Assembly (NCBI GenBank): GCA_036835125.1
Contig: DAITMO010000001.1
Location: 421,487 to 485,486 of the forward strand
Source: Patescibacteria group bacterium
GTDB taxonomy: Bacteria; Patescibacteriota; Microgenomatia; UBA8517
DNA: 64,000 bases
Direction of reading: 5' to 3'
The notes beneath the pieces were generated by a model. The model was given only the letters and a program-made list of their open reading frames with translations. It was not told the DNA's origin and did not search any database. Below are positions 3,311-61,968 of the stretch, piece by piece. The stretch's first letter is position 1, and every line of letters starts with the position of its first letter. The translations under genes were made by a program, and so were the position numbers.

Positions 3311-4594
3311 ATGGATTTAATGGAAAAAATTACTTCACTTGCAAAACGACGTGGGTTCATTTTTCAGGGTAGTGAAATATATGGTGGTTATCAGGGATTT
3401 TGGGATTATGGACCTGCTGGAGTAGAACTAAAAAATAATATCAAAAGAGAGTGGTGGAAATATATGGTTTATAGTAGGGACAATATAGTTGGAATTGACG
3501 CTGCAATAATAATGAACCCTGTTACTTGGGAAAAGTCGGGACACCTTAAGGCTTTCACAGACCCCCTGGTTGAATGCAAGATTTGCCATAAAAGAGTAAG
3601 GGCTGATAATGAAGAAGCGGTTTTACAGCACGAAAAAACTCACAAAGAAGAAAAAGATATTTGGACAGAACCAAAAACTTTCAATCTTATGACAGAAGTT
3701 CTTTTGGGTACAACAGAACCAAAAGAAAAGTCCTACTTAAGAGGAGAAATAACGCAGGGTGTTTTTGTAAACTTTAAGAATGTTGTTGATTCAACCCGCG
3801 TAAAAGTTCCATTTGGTATTTCTCAGATTGGAAAGGCTTTTAGAAATGAAATCACTCCCGGGAATTTAACTTTCCGTTCTCGTGAATTTGAACAGATGGA
3901 ACTGGAATATTTCGTACGACCAGACGAAGAAGAGAGTAAAGACGTCTTTGAGTATTGGAAGGAAGAAAGAAAAAAATGGTATGAAAATCTTGGGATAAAT
4001 CCAGAGAAACTAAGATTCCATGATCATGAACCTGAAAAAAGAGCTCATTATGCTAAGTATGCAACTGATTTGGAATATGAAGCACCATTTGGGTGGAGTG
4101 AATTTGAAGGAATCCATCATAGAGGAGATTTTGACCTTGGGAACCATGGACTGAAATATAAAGATCCTGTAACAAACGAAGAATATACCCCATGGGTAAT
4201 AGAAACATCTGGGGGGGTTGATCGGGCAATGCTATTTTTCTTGATTGATGCGTACAAGGAAGACGGTGATAGAGTCTATCTAAAACTTCATCCCAAACTT
4301 GCTCCATATAAAGTTGCTGTATTTCCACTTCTTGCAAATAAACCAGAGCTTGTTGAAAAGGCTCGAGGTATTTATAAAGAACTTAAAAACGACTTTAGTG
4401 TTGTATGGGATGATAGGGGAAATATTGGGAAACGTTATTTTGCACAGGACGAAATAGGGACTCCATGGTGTATTACGGTAGATTTTGAATCACTTGATGA
4501 TAATACTGTTACTGTTCGTGACAGGGATAGTGGAAAACAAGAAAGAATGGGCATTGACAAACTCTCAGAATATTTTCAAAATAAACTAAGATGA
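3311..4594 (+). CDS. glyQS: glycine--tRNA ligase (single-chain alpha2 type)
   Basis: 427 aa; N-terminus GFIFQGSEIYGGYQGFWDYGPAGVELKNNIKREWW and class II aaRS core typical of dimeric GlyRS. Confidence 0.9.
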   Translation: MDLMEKITSLAKRRGFIFQGSEIYGGYQGFWDYGPAGVELKNNIKREWWKYMVYSRDNIVGIDAAIIMNPVTWEKSGHLKAFTDPLVECKICHKRVRADNEEAVLQHEKTHKEEKDIWTEPKTFNLMTEVLLGTTEPKEKSYLRGEITQGVFVNFKNVVDSTRVKVPFGISQIGKAFRNEITPGNLTFRSREFEQMELEYFVRPDEEESKDVFEYWKEERKKWYENLGINPEKLRFHDHEPEKRAHYAKYATDLEYEAPFGWSEFEGIHHRGDFDLGNHGLKYKDPVTNEEYTPWVIETSGGVDRAMLFFLIDAYKEDGDRVYLKLHPKLAPYKVAVFPLLANKPELVEKARGIYKELKNDFSVVWDDRGNIGKRYFAQDEIGTPWCITVDFESLDDNTVTVRDRDSGKQERMGIDKLSEYFQNKLR

Positions 4595-5262
4595 GTCCTA
4601 AGTTAAAGAAACTTCTACCTATTATTGCAGGAATATTGATAGTTGTAGTGGTAGTTGTTGCATTTTTAGTTAGGGGAAATAAATCAGTTGGTACCACTGA
4701 GGAAGAATCAGGAAGCACTCCAACCCTTTCTGAAGATCAATGGCCAGCAATTTCATTAACACCAACGGAAAAGTCTGACGTTTCAGGATCTCTTGGTAAA
4801 TGGCTTAATTTTAAAGTTGAGAAGATAAATGTTAAAAACGCTAAGAGTATGGATTACCTTTTGGTATATAACACTAGTGATGGAGGACAACAGGGAGTTC
4901 CTGGTTCTGTACAGCTTACAGGTACTAGTATAGAAAAGAAGCTTCTTTTGGGGTCTGAGTCCTCTGGTAAGTATCGATATGATGCTGGGGTAGAAACTGG
5001 AACAATGACAATTACTTTTAGAGATGCAAAAGGTAAATCTTTAGGGAAGCTTGCAACGGAATTTCACCTTCAGACTGGAGTAACTGAATTAACCTCAGTT
5101 GAAAAGACATTCAAATACACTCTTAATAAAGCTGCTAAGAATGTCTATTTCGTAACAATGAAAACTTTTGCCAAGCCAGAAGTACCAACTGTCATTTGGC
5201 AAGATGGTTATGGAATATTTGCTTCAGATGGTGAGGAACACGCAGGATCTGTAGCAGAATAA
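4591..5262 (+). CDS. hypothetical membrane-anchored protein
   Basis: 223 aa with N-terminal TM; start overlaps the glyQS stop (ATGA); no family recognised. Confidence 0.4.
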   Translation: MSPKLKKLLPIIAGILIVVVVVVAFLVRGNKSVGTTEEESGSTPTLSEDQWPAISLTPTEKSDVSGSLGKWLNFKVEKINVKNAKSMDYLLVYNTSDGGQQGVPGSVQLTGTSIEKKLLLGSESSGKYRYDAGVETGTMTITFRDAKGKSLGKLATEFHLQTGVTELTSVEKTFKYTLNKAAKNVYFVTMKTFAKPEVPTVIWQDGYGIFASDGEEHAGSVAE

Positions 5263-49587: not shown

Positions 49588-49618
49588 AAGGTAGTCAATT
49601 ATATCATTTACTCTCTTT

Positions 49619-49633
49619 TGGAGCGGGTGAGCG
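49619..49633. repeat. 15-bp direct repeat identical to the 3' end of tRNA-Gly (att-like; partner at 51032..51046)
   Basis: tggagcgggtgagcg is identical at 49619-49633 and 51032-51046. Flanks diverge immediately, and the second copy is the 3' acceptor/CCA end of the minus-strand tRNA-Gly. Confidence 0.8.
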
Positions 49634-50980: not shown

Positions 50981-51031
50981 TTATGTATTTGTCAAGCAAC
51001 TTTGTGTACATTTCTGTAGGTAATTCTCATA

Positions 51032-51105
51032 TGGAGCGGGTGAGCGGAGTCGAACCGCCCTTTCTACCTTGGGAAGGTAGCGTTGAGCCGATCAACTACA
51101 CCCGC
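51032..51105 (-). tRNA. tRNA-Gly (anticodon CCC)
   Basis: Reverse complement: acceptor gcgggtg/cacccgc, D-arm gttg-atcggct-caac, anticodon arm ctacc-ttCCCaa-ggtag, T-arm ggcgg-ttcgact-ccgct, discriminator U, CCA encoded; 74 nt. Confidence 0.85.
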
Positions 51106-52501: not shown

Positions 52502-52782
52502 GAGGTCGTAGCTCAATTGGTTAGAGCGCTTCCCTGTATAAAGTGGCAGCTCTTAAGAGTAATCTTGAGATGATAATCAGGCTAATTCGGGAAATGCCTT
52601 TGAAAGAAGGAGAATCCCGAGCTAAATCTACGCTCAATTAAAAAATGAACGTAGTAAATGTGTAGAGACTATATACCTGATATCCTACCTGGTTCACCCA
52701 GGGGATAATGAGATAGTCCACCTTTTCAGAAATGAAAAGTTTTGCACGGAAGAGGTTGCGAGTTCGAGTCTCGTCGACCCCG
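52502..52782 (+). tRNA. tRNA-Asp (anticodon GUC) interrupted by a group I intron between nt 35 and 36
   Basis: 5' exon 52502-52537: acceptor gaggtcg, D-arm gctc-aattggtta-gagc, anticodon stem cttcc, then loop nt ctgt. 3' exon 52745-52782: cac-ggaag (stem partner)-aggtt-gcgag-ttcgagt-ctcgt-cgacccc-G. Spliced loop is CUGUCAC (as in E. coli tRNA-Asp), discriminator G; one A-C mismatch at 2:71. Confidence 0.8.
52538..52744 (+). ncRNA. group I self-splicing intron (207 nt) in the tRNA-Asp anticodon loop
   Basis: Internal guide GUGGCAG (52543-52549) pairs with 3' exon CAC (P10) and 5' exon CUGU (P1, U.G at the 5' splice site); terminal omega-G at 52744. Conserved P (aattcgggaaa), Q (aatcccgagc), R (gtgtagagactata) and S (gagatagtcc) elements, with gacta/tagtc forming P7. 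Confidence 0.8.
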
Positions 52783-54267
52783 CCCAGAGTGACGGTACTC
52801 AGGTTTTAGGAGTACATCATAGGGCATTTTGAAGCTAAAAACAGGGTTTTTGTTATCCAAATAGAAGTTCTCACCGATATCCATAAGTAATTTTCTCTTC
52901 TCTAAAATTTTATCGCTTTCCATAACACTTCGTGCGTAAAAAGCGTTATCTAGAAATTCTTCAGCTAGTTCCAACCAATTTTCTTCTGAATTTTTGACAT
53001 CCCTAATTAATCCCTCGATTCTAGCCTGTTCACTTAAAGATATATTCTTTTGGATCATAAATTCATCTCTAGTAAGTTCATTATTTGCACGCATTTCAAT
53101 TAATCTACTTATTTTGGTCTGAATCATTCTTTCTTCCTTATTCAGGTGTTCAATTTGTTCATTGTTTCTATTCGATTGATCCTTATTTTTAGCTTTTAAA
53201 AGTTTCACTCCAAGCTCCCAAACATCTTTATCAATCGATATCTTGGAGATTTTATATAACAATCTACCTTCAAAATTTTCCAATCTAACTGGTGATTGAT
53301 CACAATTTCCTTTACGTTTTGTGCAGTGTAAATAAACATATCTGACTGTTCGGTTGGTTTCTTTGTAATATTTAGTTTTGAATGTTGTGGTTATGGCGGA
53401 ATTACATGATGGACATTTTAAAAGGCCATTATAGCTCATTTTATTCCAAATATTCACTTGCGGCTTTGATCGGTCTTTTAACTTTTCTTGTGCGGTATCA
53501 AACAGCGTCTTAGTGATTAGTGGATCATAATTCCCTTTGTAAAGTTGCCCTTTATATTTGAAATAACCATAATAGGATGGATTTGTAAGCATTCGGTGAA
53601 TTTGTTCTTTACAAAGTTTTTCACCATTCCTAGCAGTTAAACCTTGTGAATATAAAAAATTCGCAATGTTTGTAAGCGAATACTGACCAGTAGCTTCCAT
53701 TTCAAAAATTTTTTTAATCAACGGAGCTTCAAATCCGTCTGGAATTAGATTCTTTTTACCTTTCTCGCCGACCATTTTATAACCAAAGAACGAATAACCA
53801 GGATATTCTCCTCGTTCAACCTTGTGCTTTAAACCTCTCAAAACATTTTGGCTCAATACTCGAGAATATTGATTAGCCATTCCAAAATGAATTTGAAGTA
53901 TTAGGTGGTCTGAGTCTGGATTATAAATTTCTCCCGTGGGTGTTCTTATTTCTTTTAAAACACCATCTTGCAATAACTGAAGTATTTCACCCCCTTCTTT
54001 TGGATTTCTACTTAACCTATCTGGTTTCCAGGTAAGTATTGCATCAGCCTTATTAGATTTAATAAGTTCTAACATTTCATTAAACACGACACGTTTATTT
54101 GGTTTGTAGGCAGATTTACTTTCTTGTAAACGGTAAACAATGGGCAAAGATTCTTTCAATGCATATTCTTCACATTCTAAATTCTGGTCGTTTATTGAAG
54201 CCACTTGTTTCTCTTTTGCTTCAGAGGACTTCCTGGAATATCTAATATATCTTAATTTGTTATTCAT
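52726..54267 (-). CDS. large serine recombinase (integrase)
   Basis: N-terminal resolvase catalytic domain (RYIRYSRKSSEAKEKQVASINDQ ... ILTWKPDRLSRN), recombinase domain and Cys4 zinc ribbon (CPSCNS ... LHCTKRKGNC); 513 aa. The last ~19 codons are the antisense of the tRNA-Asp 3' exon. Confidence 0.85.
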   Translation of the reverse strand: MNNKLRYIRYSRKSSEAKEKQVASINDQNLECEEYALKESLPIVYRLQESKSAYKPNKRVVFNEMLELIKSNKADAILTWKPDRLSRNPKEGGEILQLLQDGVLKEIRTPTGEIYNPDSDHLILQIHFGMANQYSRVLSQNVLRGLKHKVERGEYPGYSFFGYKMVGEKGKKNLIPDGFEAPLIKKIFEMEATGQYSLTNIANFLYSQGLTARNGEKLCKEQIHRMLTNPSYYGYFKYKGQLYKGNYDPLITKTLFDTAQEKLKDRSKPQVNIWNKMSYNGLLKCPSCNSAITTTFKTKYYKETNRTVRYVYLHCTKRKGNCDQSPVRLENFEGRLLYKISKISIDKDVWELGVKLLKAKNKDQSNRNNEQIEHLNKEERMIQTKISRLIEMRANNELTRDEFMIQKNISLSEQARIEGLIRDVKNSEENWLELAEEFLDNAFYARSVMESDKILEKRKLLMDIGENFYLDNKNPVFSFKMPYDVLLKPEYRHSGRGRRDSNSQPLPCKTFHF

Positions 54268-57238: not shown

Positions 57239-57451
57239 ATGAATTACCAAACAATATACAGAAAGCTAGGTGAAAGAATTGAATGGTTCAGAAAAGAGAA
57301 AGGAATGACACAAGAGGAGTTGGCAGAAAAAGCTGGTTTACATAGGGCATATTTTTGGGATATAGAAAGGGGTAGAAATATCTCAGTAAGAACAGCGTAT
57401 TTGATATCCAGGGCGTTAGAGATTAAACTATCCACACTTTTCGATTTTTAG
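57239..57451 (+). CDS. XRE-family helix-turn-helix transcriptional regulator
   Basis: 70 aa; MTQEELAEKAGLHRAYFWDIERG is a canonical Cro/C1-type HTH; divergent from the S26 operon. Confidence 0.8.
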   Translation: MNYQTIYRKLGERIEWFRKEKGMTQEELAEKAGLHRAYFWDIERGRNISVRTAYLISRALEIKLSTLFDF

Positions 57452-57521
57452 TTAAAATATTACTTTAATTTTGCATGTTTGCATCTTTGTTATAAAATAA
57501 CTTAGTTCTGTCTAAAACTGA

Positions 57522-58511
57522 ATGACCAAAGCTCAATTAGAAACAAGTATTAAGACATTGGCTGAATTAAGAGATTCTAACGAGATTATCTTTTATTTGA
57601 CTAGTGACAAAAAACCTCCAGAATTGTTTGCAACGGCGATTGCAACAGATACGTTAGCTATATTTGAAAAACATCTATCAAAGATTGGTCAGAAAAATAA
57701 AATTTCACTTTTTCTTAATACAACTGGAGGTAGTCTCGAGGCACCATGGCCGATAGTGTCTTTAATACGTGAGTATTGCAAAGAGCTTGAAGTAATTGTA
57801 CCTTTTCAGGCCTTGAGTGCGGGTACACTTATTTGTTTGGGTGCTGATAAAATTGTTATGACTCCATCAAGTTTTTTAAGCCCAATTGATCCGAGAGGTT
57901 CTTACAGACTTGGTGCTGAAACGAAAAGTATTCAAATAGAGGATGTTGTTGGTTTTATTGACTTTGCTAAGAATAAAGTTGGACTATCGGAACAGGGTTC
58001 TTTAGCCGAGGTTATGAAACTACTATCATCAGAGATACCTCCTTCGATATTGGGATCGGTGAACAGAACCCATTCACTTATAAGAATGCTTGCTGGAAAA
58101 ATGTTGAAATTGCATAAAACAAAACTGGATGATAATCAAATTCGACAGATTGTAGAAAATCTAACTGAAAAGCTATATTCACACCAATATTTAATTGGTA
58201 GAAAAGAAGCGAAAACCGTAGTTGGTTTCCATGGCATAATTCATAATGCGACCTCAGATGAAGAAAAACTAATAAAACAATTAATGAAATATTTTTCTGA
58301 CGAGATGGAATTATCCAAAAAATTTGACCCTGCCGAATATTTACAAGGTGATGCTGTTGAAAATACAATTCGAGTTTCTAGGGCTATTATAAAAAGTTCT
58401 GCTGGTCAGGACACTTATACAACTGATTATAGAATACAGAAAATACAAGATCCGGCTGCTCCCAAACCATTTAATGTAAGTTGGTCTGACAAAGAATGGA
58501 TAGAAAAATAA
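57522..58511 (+). CDS. ClpP-fold serine peptidase of the SDH (serine dehydrogenase proteinase)/S49-like family
   Basis: LFLNTTGGSLEAPWPIVSLIREY (compare ClpP INSPGG) and VPFQALSAGTLICLGADKIVM (nucleophile Ser in LSAG, as in SDH-family AKSAATLIALGADEIVM); 329 aa. Confidence 0.45.
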   Translation: MTKAQLETSIKTLAELRDSNEIIFYLTSDKKPPELFATAIATDTLAIFEKHLSKIGQKNKISLFLNTTGGSLEAPWPIVSLIREYCKELEVIVPFQALSAGTLICLGADKIVMTPSSFLSPIDPRGSYRLGAETKSIQIEDVVGFIDFAKNKVGLSEQGSLAEVMKLLSSEIPPSILGSVNRTHSLIRMLAGKMLKLHKTKLDDNQIRQIVENLTEKLYSHQYLIGRKEAKTVVGFHGIIHNATSDEEKLIKQLMKYFSDEMELSKKFDPAEYLQGDAVENTIRVSRAIIKSSAGQDTYTTDYRIQKIQDPAAPKPFNVSWSDKEWIEK

Positions 58512-58567
58512 GTATTTATGAAGATGACAAAACTGGTTTGAAAAGGGGGTGAAAATATAAAAGATAT

Positions 58568-58810
58568 ATGACAAACAACGACAAATTTGTAAAAACTACC
58601 AGCTATACTGGACAGTTACCAAACACGGGTATTGTTCAAGAAAATACAGCAAAAACCTCGTCTGAACGTGACTATATAGTAATTGATCAACAAGAGCCAT
58701 TTTCAAGCCATCAGTTTTTAACAGTTGATAATAATGATGAAGTAGATGAGGAGATAATAAAAGAAATATCTAATATAAATTACAAACCGATATTATCGTC
58801 GGCTTTATAA
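58568..58810 (+). CDS. hypothetical small acidic protein
   Basis: 80-aa ORF following the protease gene; acidic C-terminus (DNNDEVDEEIIKE). Confidence 0.3.
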   Translation: MTNNDKFVKTTSYTGQLPNTGIVQENTAKTSSERDYIVIDQQEPFSSHQFLTVDNNDEVDEEIIKEISNINYKPILSSAL

Positions 58811-58817
58811 TCCATGA

Positions 58818-59369
58818 ATGTATACGGCAATAAATCCTCAAGAAATTCTTCAAGGAGATTTGATAGTTGATTATGAATTTATTGCACCACCAACAGATGA
58901 ATTGTTGGTGGTTGAGAGGAACCAAAGTGGTGTTTTGATTACTAAACCAGTTTCACAGGTGGTTAAGCCATATATAGGTGGTAAGATAGCCGTCGTAGCT
59001 AATTCTTTCGTTTCAGATGCTATGGTGATATCACAGTCGTGCGATATCCAACGGCGAGATTATGTGCATTTATGTCCAGTACATAAATTAGGAAACCTAA
59101 TTACAGAATTAAGTTCTAAAGGATTTGAACAAAAAAGAATAGATGGCGTTTTGGACGGCTTGAGAAAAAATACAATAAATTATTATTTTTATCTACCACC
59201 AGGCTCAATAAACGAGATTCCTATCGAAGAAAGCTATGTAGATTTACAGTTTGTGGGAATGGCACCTCTTTTAACACTTGGGACTTATTCTAGAACCCTA
59301 TCACTTACTGATTTAGGCAGACATCGTCTTACATTCAAGCTAACTAATTTGTATAGTAGACCTATTTAG
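58818..59369 (+). CDS. hypothetical protein
   Basis: 183-aa ORF, no motif; followed by a clear terminator. Confidence 0.35.
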   Translation: MYTAINPQEILQGDLIVDYEFIAPPTDELLVVERNQSGVLITKPVSQVVKPYIGGKIAVVANSFVSDAMVISQSCDIQRRDYVHLCPVHKLGNLITELSSKGFEQKRIDGVLDGLRKNTINYYFYLPPGSINEIPIEESYVDLQFVGMAPLLTLGTYSRTLSLTDLGRHRLTFKLTNLYSRPI

Positions 59370-59466
59370 AACAGTGAAAAAGTTCTGGAGATAGTCAACT
59401 AAAGCCCGCTTGTATATTGTAATTTTGACTTCCATCTTCAGTTGTAGTAGTATGCACTTATAATTT

Positions 59467-59499
59467 CAGGCTAAATGCAGCCTGATTTTTTGTTTTTTT
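59467..59499 (+). terminator. rho-independent terminator
   Basis: caggct-aaatgc-agcctg hairpin followed by aTTTTTTgTTTTTTT. Confidence 0.6.
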
Positions 59500-59640
59500 A
59501 GGCTTAAGCTATCTTGTACTTTAAAAGTTGCGGATTATTAGAAAAAACTCCTTCTTAAGTGGGTAGTTTTCTGGATATTACGTATCTGGAAAAATACCCA
59601 CTTGGGTAGAAAATTTTTTTTCGGAAAAGGAGTGTGTCAA

Positions 59641-60093
59641 ATGAAAACAAAAACAATCGGTTACATAATTTGGACGATTGTAGTTATCGCTGCCCTTATC
59701 TTCGTTGGTATTCAAGTTACGAAGGACCGAGTGTACATCGGGACCAAGCATGAATTCAGCACCGACAGGACGATTCAAATTGATGCTAATAAAGTAACCT
59801 TTCAGGCGGCATCGTCTGATTTCTTCGTTCTTCGAAAGGTGAGTGGTGAAACCATCATAGGTTCTCCCGCACCCGCCCCGCTAAGATGGTCAAGTGATTT
59901 GTATTTCACTGCTGGACCACAAGAAGTTCCCGGCGGCACATGGTTATTCGCGTATGGAACTGCTACAGTGAATATCACGAGCGACAGACCTGTAACTGTA
60001 CGATTGATCCAAGCAGATCAGGGAAGGTATTGGGTTTTAATAATAATGTCTGCTTTTCTCGTGTGGATATTAGGCATCTTTTTAAATCCCTAA
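59641..60093 (+). CDS. hypothetical membrane-anchored/secreted protein
   Basis: N-terminal TM (IGYIIWTIVVIAALIFVGI) and C-terminal TM. AAGGAG RBS 8 nt upstream of the ATG at 59641, preferred over the tracked 59602 start. Confidence 0.4.
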   Translation: MKTKTIGYIIWTIVVIAALIFVGIQVTKDRVYIGTKHEFSTDRTIQIDANKVTFQAASSDFFVLRKVSGETIIGSPAPAPLRWSSDLYFTAGPQEVPGGTWLFAYGTATVNITSDRPVTVRLIQADQGRYWVLIIMSAFLVWILGIFLNP

Positions 60094-60255: not shown

Positions 60256-61968
60256 ATGCCTCAAAAACCATTAACTAATCTCCAAATTGCAGAATTACTT
60301 CGTGATGTAGCAGCTTCGTATCAATTAAAAGACGATCGAAAATATAAATTTCAAATAATTGCATATGAACGTGCCTCAGATGCAGTTGAGCACGCTACAA
60401 GTGAACTAAAAGACCTTTGGGATGATGGGAAATTGGAAGAAGTTCCTGGTATTGGACCCTCAATTGCGGAGCATTTAGGAGAATTATTCAAAAATGGGTA
60501 TTCCAAACATTTTGAGAAATTAATGGAAGGTATTCCGAAAGAAGCATTTAAGCTAATGGAACTGCCTGGAATTGGAATAAAAACTGCAATGAAGCTTTTA
60601 AAAGAAGGTAATCCAAAAGAAGTTAAGGCAAAACTTATTGAAGTAGAAAAGAAAAACAAAAAGGTTAAAAGACACCTTTTGCCATATGCTGCAATGGTAG
60701 CAAATGAAGTAATGGATTATCTTTTGACTTGTCCTGAAACATTGCGTGTAGACCCACTAGGAAGCCTTAGACGCCAAGCTTCAACCATTGGGGATATAGA
60801 CATCGCTGTAGCCACAAATGACCCAGGAACAGTCTTGGAATATTTCACTAAATATCCAAAATCAAATAAAACTATTGATATAGGAGACACTTCAGCCTCA
60901 ATCTTGCTACCAGGGGATATTAGAGTTGACCTTAAAGCACAACCTTTAAAGACTTATGGATCACTTCTGCAACATTTTACAGGTTCAAAACACCATAATA
61001 TTGCACTTCGTGAATACTCACTAAAAAAAGGCCTATCACTATCTGAATATGGTATTAAAAATATCTCAACTGGTAAGATGTCGAAATTTAGCGATGAAAA
61101 AGATTTCTATGAGTATTTGGGGTTGGAATATATAGAACCTGAATTAAGAGAAGACACTGGTGAAATTGAGGCTGCAAAAGAACATAAACTTCCAAAACTA
61201 GTAAATATTTCTGACATTAAAGGTGATCTACAGATTCATTCAGATTTTGATATAGAAACTAGTCATGATCTTGGAGAAAGCTCTATGGAAGAAATTATTG
61301 ATAAAGGAAACGAACTGGGATATGAATATTTAGCTTTCACTGAACATAATCCAAGTCAAAAAGGTCACAGTCAAAAAGATATTGTGGAAATACTAAAAAG
61401 AAAGCGTGAAAAGATTGATAAACTAAATTACTCAATTAAAGAAAAGGGTAATAATAGTATACATAAAGTATTTAACAGCCTTGAGATAGATATTCTTTCA
61501 GATGGTTTAATTCCTGTACCAGACGCGGGATTAGATTTATTAGATTTTGCCTTAGTTTCAATTCACTCAAGTTTTAATTTGTCTCGTGACCAAATGACAA
61601 ATAGAGTTTTAAAAGCATTAACACACCCAAAGTGTAAAATCTTTGCACACCCAACAGCCAGGAAATTAAATGAACGTGAGGGTGTGGAACTTGATTGGCC
61701 AAAAATTTTTGATTTTTGTTTGAAGAATGATAAATGGATAGAGATAGATGCAGACCCCATGCGTCTTGATTTACCAGACAATTTAGTTCGTGAGGCAGTG
61801 AAAAGTGGTGTGAAACTAACAATAGGTACGGATGCCCATCATAAAGACGGACTGAACAATATGATATTTGGAGTGTCTGTGGCAAGACGAGGATGGGCAG
61901 ATGCTCATGATATAATAAATACTTGTAATTTAGATGAGTTTGAAAAAGAATTAAAAGGAGGTGAATAA
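60256..61968 (+). CDS. DNA polymerase X family protein with C-terminal PHP domain
   Basis: N-terminal HhH/Pol-beta-like region (IGPSIAEHL ... GIGIKTAMKLL), nucleotidyltransferase GDIDIAV, C-terminal PHP His-rich motifs (DLQIHSDFD ... HNPS ... IHSS). Confidence 0.85.
   Translation: MPQKPLTNLQIAELLRDVAASYQLKDDRKYKFQIIAYERASDAVEHATSELKDLWDDGKLEEVPGIGPSIAEHLGELFKNGYSKHFEKLMEGIPKEAFKLMELPGIGIKTAMKLLKEGNPKEVKAKLIEVEKKNKKVKRHLLPYAAMVANEVMDYLLTCPETLRVDPLGSLRRQASTIGDIDIAVATNDPGTVLEYFTKYPKSNKTIDIGDTSASILLPGDIRVDLKAQPLKTYGSLLQHFTGSKHHNIALREYSLKKGLSLSEYGIKNISTGKMSKFSDEKDFYEYLGLEYIEPELREDTGEIEAAKEHKLPKLVNISDIKGDLQIHSDFDIETSHDLGESSMEEIIDKGNELGYEYLAFTEHNPSQKGHSQKDIVEILKRKREKIDKLNYSIKEKGNNSIHKVFNSLEIDILSDGLIPVPDAGLDLLDFALVSIHSSFNLSRDQMTNRVLKALTHPKCKIFAHPTARKLNEREGVELDWPKIFDFCLKNDKWIEIDADPMRLDLPDNLVREAVKSGVKLTIGTDAHHKDGLNNMIFGVSVARRGWADAHDIINTCNLDEFEKELKGGE

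Follow-up and report, generated by a model that had tools for sequence, protein, structure and literature searches.

A mobile three-gene cassette of a ClpP-fold protease, a small acidic protein and a predicted MazF-fold protein in Patescibacteria: a candidate toxin-antitoxin or abortive-infection module

We analyzed 64,000 nt of the genome of a Patescibacteria group bacterium (Microgenomatia, UBA8517; assembly GCA_036835125.1, contig DAITMO010000001.1, positions 421,487-485,486 of the forward strand). This whole stretch is called the window, and all coordinates refer to it. The region under study (57239-60093) carries three adjacent genes, encoding a serine protease of the ClpP fold, a small acidic protein and a protein with a predicted MazF-type fold, which recur together as a conserved cassette. 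A first-pass annotation, made from the letters alone, had listed five open reading frames (ORFs) in the region, and our six-frame ORF list reproduced all five at the same coordinates and lengths. The features of the region, together with the recombinase gene of the element that carries it, are the following.

57239-57451, + strand: XRE/Cro-C1 helix-turn-helix (HTH) regulator, 70 amino acids (aa); HTH_3, E 2.9e-13
57522-58511, + strand: SDH-family ClpP-fold serine protease, 329 aa; PF01972 SDH_protease, 54.3 bits against a gathering cut-off of 31.3
58568-58810, + strand: small acidic protein, 80 aa, pI 4.35; putative antitoxin or substrate of the protease, with homologues in the same position
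58818-59369, + strand: MazF/PemK/CcdB-fold protein by predicted structure, 183 aa; candidate toxin
59466-59493, + strand: intrinsic terminator closing the operon; stem TCAGGCTAAATGCAGCCTGA, then TTTTTTGTTT
59551-59621, + strand: long RNA hairpin of ~26 bp with G-U pairs, plus a T-run; from folding energy
59602-60093, + strand: membrane protein, 163 aa from a TTG start; a neighbor outside the conserved cassette
52726-54267, - strand: large serine recombinase; Resolvase E 2.2e-19, Recombinase E 2.2e-16, Zn-ribbon domain

The identities first proposed for the XRE regulator, for the SDH-family protease with its serine in an LSAG motif and for the acidic 80-aa protein were borne out by Pfam, by the residues L98-S99-A-G and by the pI, respectively. 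The strong terminator described after the 183-aa gene was also recovered by a terminator scan (59466-59485 plus T-run); the region contains 16 terminator-like sites, against 5.0 +/- 2.0 in shuffled sequences. The 80-aa, 183-aa and 163-aa proteins had no match in Pfam, NCBIfam or PADLOC.

The functional unit consists of three genes, encoding the protease, the 80-aa acidic protein and the 183-aa protein. The same order (protease, small protein of 62-125 aa, MazF-fold family member) is syntenic in 11 distinct loci, namely the window and the loci that we designate L001, L004, L007, L010, L011, L012, L025, L028, L029 and L030, with protease identity ranging from 70% down to 44%. A search with the 183-aa protein found nine close relatives, and in every contig long enough to judge they lie in the order protease, 81-90-aa protein, 182-191-aa protein. 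We also sampled from the protease side four loci at 44-49% identity (L028, L029, L030 and L032). Three of the four carry the trio, the third gene being recognized by its family profile with E-values of 1e-41 to 1e-59. In the remaining locus, L032 of Scalindua rubra (protease 46% identical), the protease is followed by a 97-aa protein and, 4 nt later, by a PIN domain protein of 134 aa (31.5 bits against a cut-off of 23.6). The 97-aa/PIN genes are a VapBC-like pair, so that in this one locus the candidate toxin has been exchanged for a PIN protein. Adjacent genes of the trio overlap or are separated by a few to ~25 nt. In the window the gap between the protease and small-protein genes is 56 nt and the small gene ends 7 nt before the 183-aa gene, and in relatives the small gene overlaps the protease gene.

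The flanks of the trio differ among loci, with thioredoxin/DsbA genes in L001, a resolvase in L029, and a primase and sigma-70 followed by HTH/T5orf172/EcoRI-methylase/GmrSD genes in L030. The trio is also found away from recombinases, beside restriction-modification genes and on viral contigs, and the background is variable and mobile in all 11 loci. This recurrence in 11 loci with differing surroundings agrees with the proposal that the genes are mobile cargo and not a housekeeping operon. The first-pass annotation had treated all five genes as one module; the trio within it is conserved, whereas the XRE gene is optional and the membrane-protein gene is absent from all relatives. An upstream, same-strand XRE gene was seen in the window and L004/L005/L023 alone, and 9 of the 11 trio loci have none in that place; in L029 an XRE gene is located downstream on the opposite strand. 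The best PADLOC matches of the window XRE protein are generic 'control protein' and capH HTH models. We conclude that the XRE protein is an optional transcriptional partner of the cassette.

The 183-aa protein had been described as having no recognizable domain, and structure prediction corrects this. Its only library match is phrog_4575, annotated 'unknown function'. An exhaustive profile search (E <= 1e-3) delineated a family of 358 clusters at 50% identity, nearly all of them stand-alone proteins of 150-250 aa; 147 members had no consistent Pfam match and no PADLOC model, and their profile had no sequence match in the PDB. AlphaFold2 with a 147-sequence alignment gave a model with a pLDDT of 96.7 (a run with nine sequences was unusable, with a pLDDT of 54). 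The top 50 Foldseek matches of the model in the PDB were exclusively MazF-family toxins (MazF, MoxT, YdcE), and in BFVD it matched 'PemK-like protein' entries. The 183-aa protein is thus solidly predicted to adopt the MazF/PemK/CcdB fold, an SH3-like beta-barrel. It is ~70 residues longer than MazF and contains insertions. Conserved positions are Y2, Q12-G13-D14, S72-Q73-[ST]74-C75 (100%)-D76 (97%), P87, F124-Y-L-P127, E138-S139, R159 and R181, which define the family motifs QGD (12-14), [ST]Q[ST]CD, FYLP, ES and R181-P. At the level of motifs, QGD-[IL] before strand 1 and [ST]Q[ST]CD after strand 2 seem to echo the (R/K)GD-[IV] and V(I/L)(Q/S)ND of MazF.

Distant members of this family have other neighbors, the most constant feature around the family being a small gene directly upstream. 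In L013 (5728-7513) and L015 (5629-7465) the MazF-fold member is preceded by a TIGR04255-family protein (E 2e-31 and 4e-17, respectively) and a 112-119-aa protein. This is a second conserved three-gene architecture, whose first component is uncharacterized. In L017 (1990-6023) the MazF-fold member begins 8 nt after the gene for a 514-aa protein without a family match, in a defense-island-like setting with an Old-family ATPase-TOPRIM nuclease and a Ser/Thr kinase with TPR repeats. In L026 it is preceded by a 290-aa unknown protein and a 62-aa acidic protein. We considered the 290-aa partner as a proteasome- or HslV-like protease and dropped this assignment, as Pfam returned nothing and the PDB matches were noise only. 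Other distant members have a 128-149-aa protein and a 78-86-aa protein upstream.

The protease of the window scores 63.3 against NF047768, the NCBIfam SDH equivalog, which is far under the cut-off of 250; it therefore belongs to a divergent SDH subfamily. It matches phrog_11747 ('unknown function') over nearly its full length with an E-value of 1.8e-40. In alignments of 9 and 30 sequences G69-G70, S99 (in LSAG), D123 (in IDP) and H221 (in YSH) are invariant, and the catalytic residues are kept also in the homologue from a Mu-like Shewanella phage. The triad runs along the sequence as Ser-Asp-His, the order for which the SDH family is named, and because it is invariant the protease is predicted to be active. 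No sensor domain was recognizable in it with Pfam or NCBIfam. Its relatives number at least 534 at E <= 1e-5, and most of them are from Patescibacteria. Literature searches on PF01972, TIGR04255, DUF114 and serine dehydrogenase proteinase returned nothing relevant.

In the Shewanella phage (MuM16-1) the protease homologue lies between late regulator C and the lysis genes. An adjoining 185-aa protein was considered and rejected as a homologue of the 183-aa protein (hhalign E 0.1; no PHROG or Pfam match). In Escherichia coli the homologue (32% identity) stands alone on the opposite strand of a lambdoid phage-plasmid, between the genes for antiterminator Q and the holin (L091, NZ_CP081704.1, 2229-3396), and its stop codon is overlapped by an unannotated 59-aa ORF. 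Of 5426 complete E. coli genomes, 47 carry this locus at 99% identity or more. The Q-holin interval is the classic slot for morons. In three viral contigs (L053, L061 and L063, at about 3900-5000) a protease homologue was found between a 547-aa terminase-like and a ~405-aa portal-like protein, as judged by reading the sequences; this interval is an unusual insertion point for a moron.

Homologues of the 80-aa protein occupy the same position in L001, L004, L007, L010, L011, L012 and L025, and of 13 proteins in the small-gene position, 62-123 aa long, 12 are acidic (pI 4.0-5.7). They evolve fast. Those of the candidate phyla radiation (CPR) share two conserved islands, an N-terminal S-Y-T-G and a C-terminal D-EE-hh-KE-h..NYK.hL, with a variable linker between them. 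Acidity, fast evolution and two conserved islands are typical of disordered type II antitoxins. The 80-aa protein itself had no match in any library, and no HTH, ribbon-helix-helix (RHH) or AbrB DNA-binding domain was found in it with Pfam and NCBIfam. Motifs of the type [FY]-x-T-[GSD] occur in otherwise unrelated small ORFs that follow the protease in L028/L030, in Chlorohelix (L092), in E. coli and in a six-locus viral family. The pair of protease and small ORF is older and more widespread than the trio.

The cassette is carried by an element of ~7.4 kb. The mobile-island setting that had been proposed was confirmed by a serine recombinase at a tRNA gene, by housekeeping genes beyond the island and by a syntenic element in another metagenome (L004). 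The left part of the island encodes a DUF5659 protein, a weakly DnaD-like protein, two unknown proteins, an S26 signal peptidase and the recombinase. On the right, housekeeping genes begin at 60256 (PolX/PHP, LemA, HtpX and GatC, by reading of the translations). The L004 element spans ~7 kb between tRNA-Lys and tRNA-Arg, with the order recombinase, DUF5659, small unknown proteins, XRE, protease, 83-aa and 183-aa proteins. L007 contains a homologous element with the same recombinase-over-tRNA layout, and L001 retains only a recombinase remnant adjoining a tRNA cluster. These observations suggest a family of ~7-kb integrative elements that target tRNA genes with a serine recombinase and have no capsid genes.

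The recombinase gene ends inside or beside an opposite-strand tRNA gene in L004 (67-1637), L007 (4768-6384), L001 (6028-6477) and the window (52502-54267), and the tRNAs at these ends across the CPR elements are tRNA-Lys, tRNA-Glu, a Glu-Lys-Gln cluster and, in the window, an intron-containing tRNA. The latter (52502-52786, + strand) is split by a group I intron (Rfam RF00028, 75.2 bits, 52522-52739) and is missed by ARAGORN. Manual reading identified it as tRNA-Asp(GUC), with the anticodon loop CUGU|intron|CAC; its 3' exon is overlapped in antisense by the final ~19 codons of the recombinase ORF. A 22-nt direct repeat (91% identical; 49612-49633 and 51025-51046) matches the 3' end of tRNA-Gly(CCC) and adjoins tRNA-Thr(CGU). 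It may be a tRNA fragment or the footprint of a further integration, and its copies enclose ~1.4 kb in which two ORFs lie. Within the island, the minus-strand segment 55608-57141 encodes the S26 signal peptidase I (235 aa, with extra N-terminal transmembrane segments) co-oriented with 71-aa and 205-aa membrane-anchored proteins; these genes are not kept in L004.

The membrane-protein gene that follows the cassette had been described as separately transcribed, and a terminator does separate it from the 183-aa gene. Its likelier start is the ATG at 59642, which is preceded by AAGGAG and gives a protein of ~150 aa, rather than the TTG. The product is indeed a membrane protein, but hydrophobic segments lie at both of its ends and it is not strictly bitopic, as had been stated. 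It had no family match, and phmmer found no homologue in any related locus. A candidate XRE operator shared by the XRE and membrane-protein genes (TATCTGGWAAAWAT, upstream of both) was a single occurrence and no better than chance; we therefore do not link the membrane protein to the cassette.

The operator-like 9-bp inverted repeat reported before this gene exists (AAGTGGGTA / TACCCACTT, 59557-59603), but it is better read as an RNA hairpin with a T-run. Perfect 9-bp inverted repeats with spacers of 3-40 nt are not above chance in the window (24, against 30 +/- 8 in Markov-1 random sequences). This one forms the central part of a longer stem, ~26 bp including G-U pairs, which lies between the operon terminator and the ribosome-binding site of the membrane-protein gene and is followed by the T-run. 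The folding energy of the stem is -31.5 kcal/mol on the plus strand (z = -6.3; none of 200 shuffles was as stable) and -23.7 kcal/mol, or 7.8 kcal/mol weaker, on the minus strand. We prefer the hairpin to an operator because a strand-biased stem and a T-run precede the AAGGAG-ATG. The 21-nt hairpin arm occurs at this site only. The hairpin may serve as a second terminator or as an attenuator, or it may form the end of a small RNA.

We tentatively interpret the cassette as a tripartite module of the toxin-antitoxin or abortive-infection kind with a protease of its own, a reading that we favor at somewhat less than even confidence. The resemblance to defense or abortive-infection gene sets suggested by the first-pass annotation is reasonable in our judgment. 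The gene order, its conservation and synteny, the mobile context, the intact triad, the MazF-type fold and the PIN exchange in one locus are what was observed, and from them we infer toxicity, neutralization, a protease substrate and a trigger as follows. The 183-aa protein would be the toxic effector, with RNase activity as the default guess, though its conserved residues differ from those of MazF. The acidic and probably disordered 80-aa protein would neutralize it through the conserved C-terminal helix-like motif. The protease would degrade the 80-aa protein, possibly recognizing the N-terminal [FY]-T-G motif; as it has no AAA+ partner, it should digest unfolded chains only. The toxin would then be released when the element is lost, when expression is shut off or on a phage cue. 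In loci that have an XRE gene, its product would supply the DNA-binding autoregulation that is absent from the small protein, as omega does in omega-epsilon-zeta. The cassette would thereby stabilize the integrative element, abort phage infection, or both. In line with type II toxin-antitoxin systems, the small gene lies directly before the candidate toxin gene and is coupled to it in all 11 trio loci. An autoregulating antitoxin with its own DNA-binding domain, another mark of that type, was not found in the small protein, and a separate XRE gene is present in some loci only. Tandem RNA repeats upstream of the candidate toxin, the hallmark of the type III systems ToxIN, AbiQ and CptIN, were not found.

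Several observations weigh against this interpretation. MazF catalysis uses an Arg at the start of strand 2 and a Thr or Ser after strand 3 (R25 and T48 in Bacillus subtilis, R29 and T52 in E. coli). According to the motif alignment, the catalytic Arg and Thr are not conserved in the family, which has the invariant Cys75 and the nearly invariant Asp76 instead; the activity may therefore differ from that of MazF, or the protein may not be a toxin. The 183-aa protein is not a member of the MazF (PF02452) or CcdB (PF01845) sequence families, with no Pfam match at E <= 0.1; none of its 147 relatives matches the MazF or CcdB families at E <= 0.01, and hhalign comparisons with single MazF and CcdB sequences were not significant (E 0.09 and 0.27). 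The distant family members pair with partners that are not proteases (the TIGR04255, 514-aa, 290-aa and 128-aa proteins), and the small protein has no DNA-binding or known antitoxin domain recognizable by Pfam. The small ORF, but no MazF-fold gene, accompanies most viral homologues of the protease (33-43% identity); among viral loci a MazF-fold gene was found only in L016, L044 and L072/L074, and the E. coli copy is followed by the 59-aa ORF only. Because these viral and E. coli copies lack the third gene, the pair of protease and small protein appears to work without a MazF-fold toxin. Finally, a MazF-like domain need not be toxic and can act as an adaptor that a protease cuts, as CalpT shows (10.1101/2024.05.08.593097).

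The combination of protease, small protein and MazF-fold protein is not described in the libraries or literature that we searched. The nearest named system, and the only one with PF01972, is FS_HP_SDH_sah, a two-gene anti-phage system of phage-inducible chromosomal islands, which is said to have been validated there by Fillol-Salom and colleagues (in Cell, 2022). We know of no published mechanism for it. Likened by name and domain, it shares with the cassette a PF01972 (SDH_sah/SDH_protease) protein, a small or 'hypothetical' partner and carriage on mobile elements. It differs in having two genes, whereas the cassette adds a strictly linked MazF-fold gene and sometimes an XRE gene. The cassette may explain this system. 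The earlier statement that the genes match no named system holds insofar as no PADLOC (v2) model matches the trio, but a system named in DefenseFinder, FS_HP_SDH_sah (PMC13532340), contains the same protease family. The Tai systems of phage-inducible chromosomal islands were considered and found to be unrelated, the Tai paper mentioning no protease.

The toxin-antitoxin half of the cassette would work like MazEF and PemIK. Compared with the toxins of MazEF, PemIK (Kid-Kis) and CcdAB, the candidate toxin is ~70 residues longer, lies outside their sequence families and, by motif alignment, has Cys-Asp in place of the Arg/Thr of MazF. The small protein of the cassette does not have the AbrB or RHH domain of their antitoxins, and those systems rely on host Lon or ClpXP, whereas the cassette encodes its own protease. 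The tripartite systems omega-epsilon-zeta, PaaR-PaaA-ParE and CmdTAC are similar in that an extra gene adds a layer of control to a toxin-antitoxin pair, and in that a separate HTH regulator, here XRE, replaces the DNA-binding domain missing from the antitoxin. Their third component is a regulator or chaperone and their protease a host enzyme, while the protease of the cassette is part of the operon. In CmdTAC, proteolysis of the antitoxin by a host protease is reported to be the trigger (PMC11618068). CalpL-CalpT-CalpS likewise comprises three genes, with a protease that cleaves a partner carrying a MazF-like domain (10.1101/2024.05.08.593097); it differs in its SAVED-Lon protease, in the DUF2080 domain of CalpT, in its ECF sigma factor and in its link to CRISPR, and by Pfam no cassette protein matches Lon, SAVED, DUF2080 or sigma-70. 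The Avs2-MBL, Pepco, EACC1 and other such modules also link a latent toxic effector to a protease, but the enzyme there is of the trypsin, caspase or subtilisin type and occurs in fusion with a STAND or other sensor (PMC12642450). GajC of type II Gabija, compared by its description, is a defense effector with a MazF-like domain split by a helical insertion (PMC13069673), and its partner is a UvrD-type helicase instead of a protease. A ClpP-fold protease together with a MazF-fold protein was found in none of CmdTAC, CalpL-CalpT, the protease-effector modules and GajC.

The wider conservation of the protease and small-ORF pair without a MazF-fold gene speaks for two alternatives. The protease could be a sensor or switch that cleaves the MazF-fold protein on a phage cue and removes its ~40-residue N-terminal insertion or its helical insert, or it could be restrained by the small protein as a pseudo-substrate or inhibitor; cleavage would set the toxicity free, and the small protein would be an inhibitor or bait of the protease and not an antitoxin. 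The variable third gene (MazF-fold, PIN or AAA protein) and the extra length and insertions of the 183-aa protein fit such a zymogen, and linked protease-effector modules activated by site-specific cleavage are widespread in defense (PMC12642450). On the other hand, the proteases of the described modules are of other types and fused to sensors, whereas the protease here has no recognizable sensor domain, and in L032 the PIN protein is VapC-like, of ordinary size and preceded by a small gene of its own, more in keeping with a toxin-antitoxin pair than with a zymogen. We regard the zymogen scheme as unlikely. The protease could otherwise be the effector itself, degrading phage or host proteins and held by the small protein as inhibitor, while the MazF-fold gene would be a hitch-hiking toxin-antitoxin module; the protease of FS_HP_SDH_sah may act in this way too. 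The two-gene system with SDH_sah among the defense systems of DefenseFinder (PMC13532340) and the occurrence of MazF-fold family members with other partners are consistent with this. Every trio, though, has a single small gene between the protease and MazF-fold genes, which would leave the latter without an antitoxin of its own, and the strict co-linearity and coupling across 44-70% protease identity in 11 loci favor one unit. This makes the effector role of the protease quite unlikely.

It is improbable that nothing in the cassette is toxic and that the protease, as in ImmR/ImmA or CalpL-CalpT, cleaves the XRE repressor or a MazF-fold anti-regulator in a switch governing excision, replication or gene expression of the element. 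The XRE gene directly upstream in the window and L004, the carriage on serine-recombinase elements and the anti-sigma role of CalpT, the MazF-like CalpL substrate (10.1101/2024.05.08.593097), agree with such a switch. Against it stand the 9 trio loci without an upstream XRE gene, the trios apart from recombinases, the lack of any sigma factor or DUF2080 domain by Pfam, and the PIN replacement, which points to toxins. Least probable by far is a prophage head-maturation remnant, as had been suggested earlier, or a housekeeping SppA-like operon. The protease has weak matches to head-maturation proteases over residues 47-119 only (NF045542, 36.2 bits; phrog_1684, E 1.6e-6), and the small protein is acidic and scaffold-like. 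Yet the NF045542 score is far under the cut-off of 120, the fold predicted for the 183-aa protein is that of MazF and not of a capsid protein, and no portal, terminase, capsid or scaffold gene lies beside the trio in the 11 loci. In addition, the homologues in the Shewanella Mu-like phage and the E. coli lambdoid element are outside the head module. The differing flanking genes at every locus exclude a housekeeping operon.

Beyond the favored reading of the cassette as a tripartite toxin-antitoxin or abortive-infection module, it is possible, if rather doubtful, that it represents an undescribed class, in which an element-encoded, ATP-independent ClpP-fold protease is dedicated to a disordered antitoxin and the Cys-Asp MazF-fold and PIN toxins are interchangeable. 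If so, many CPR/Patescibacteria and also phages would carry modules of this class, and it would provide a mechanism for FS_HP_SDH_sah and for the SDH-protease moron of E. coli lambdoid prophages. How antitoxins are removed is a long-running dispute, in which the role of Lon and ClpXP has been repeatedly questioned. A module with its own protease would give a clean, genetically separable test of proteolytic activation, and the E. coli prophage homologue makes the protease and small-protein half testable in a model organism. An uncharacterized family of 358 clusters (phrog_4575) and a large protease subfamily (phrog_11747) would gain a fold and a probable role. Very few conflict systems have been predicted in CPR bacteria, which have reduced genomes and may be without the usual host proteases, and the cassette would be one more.

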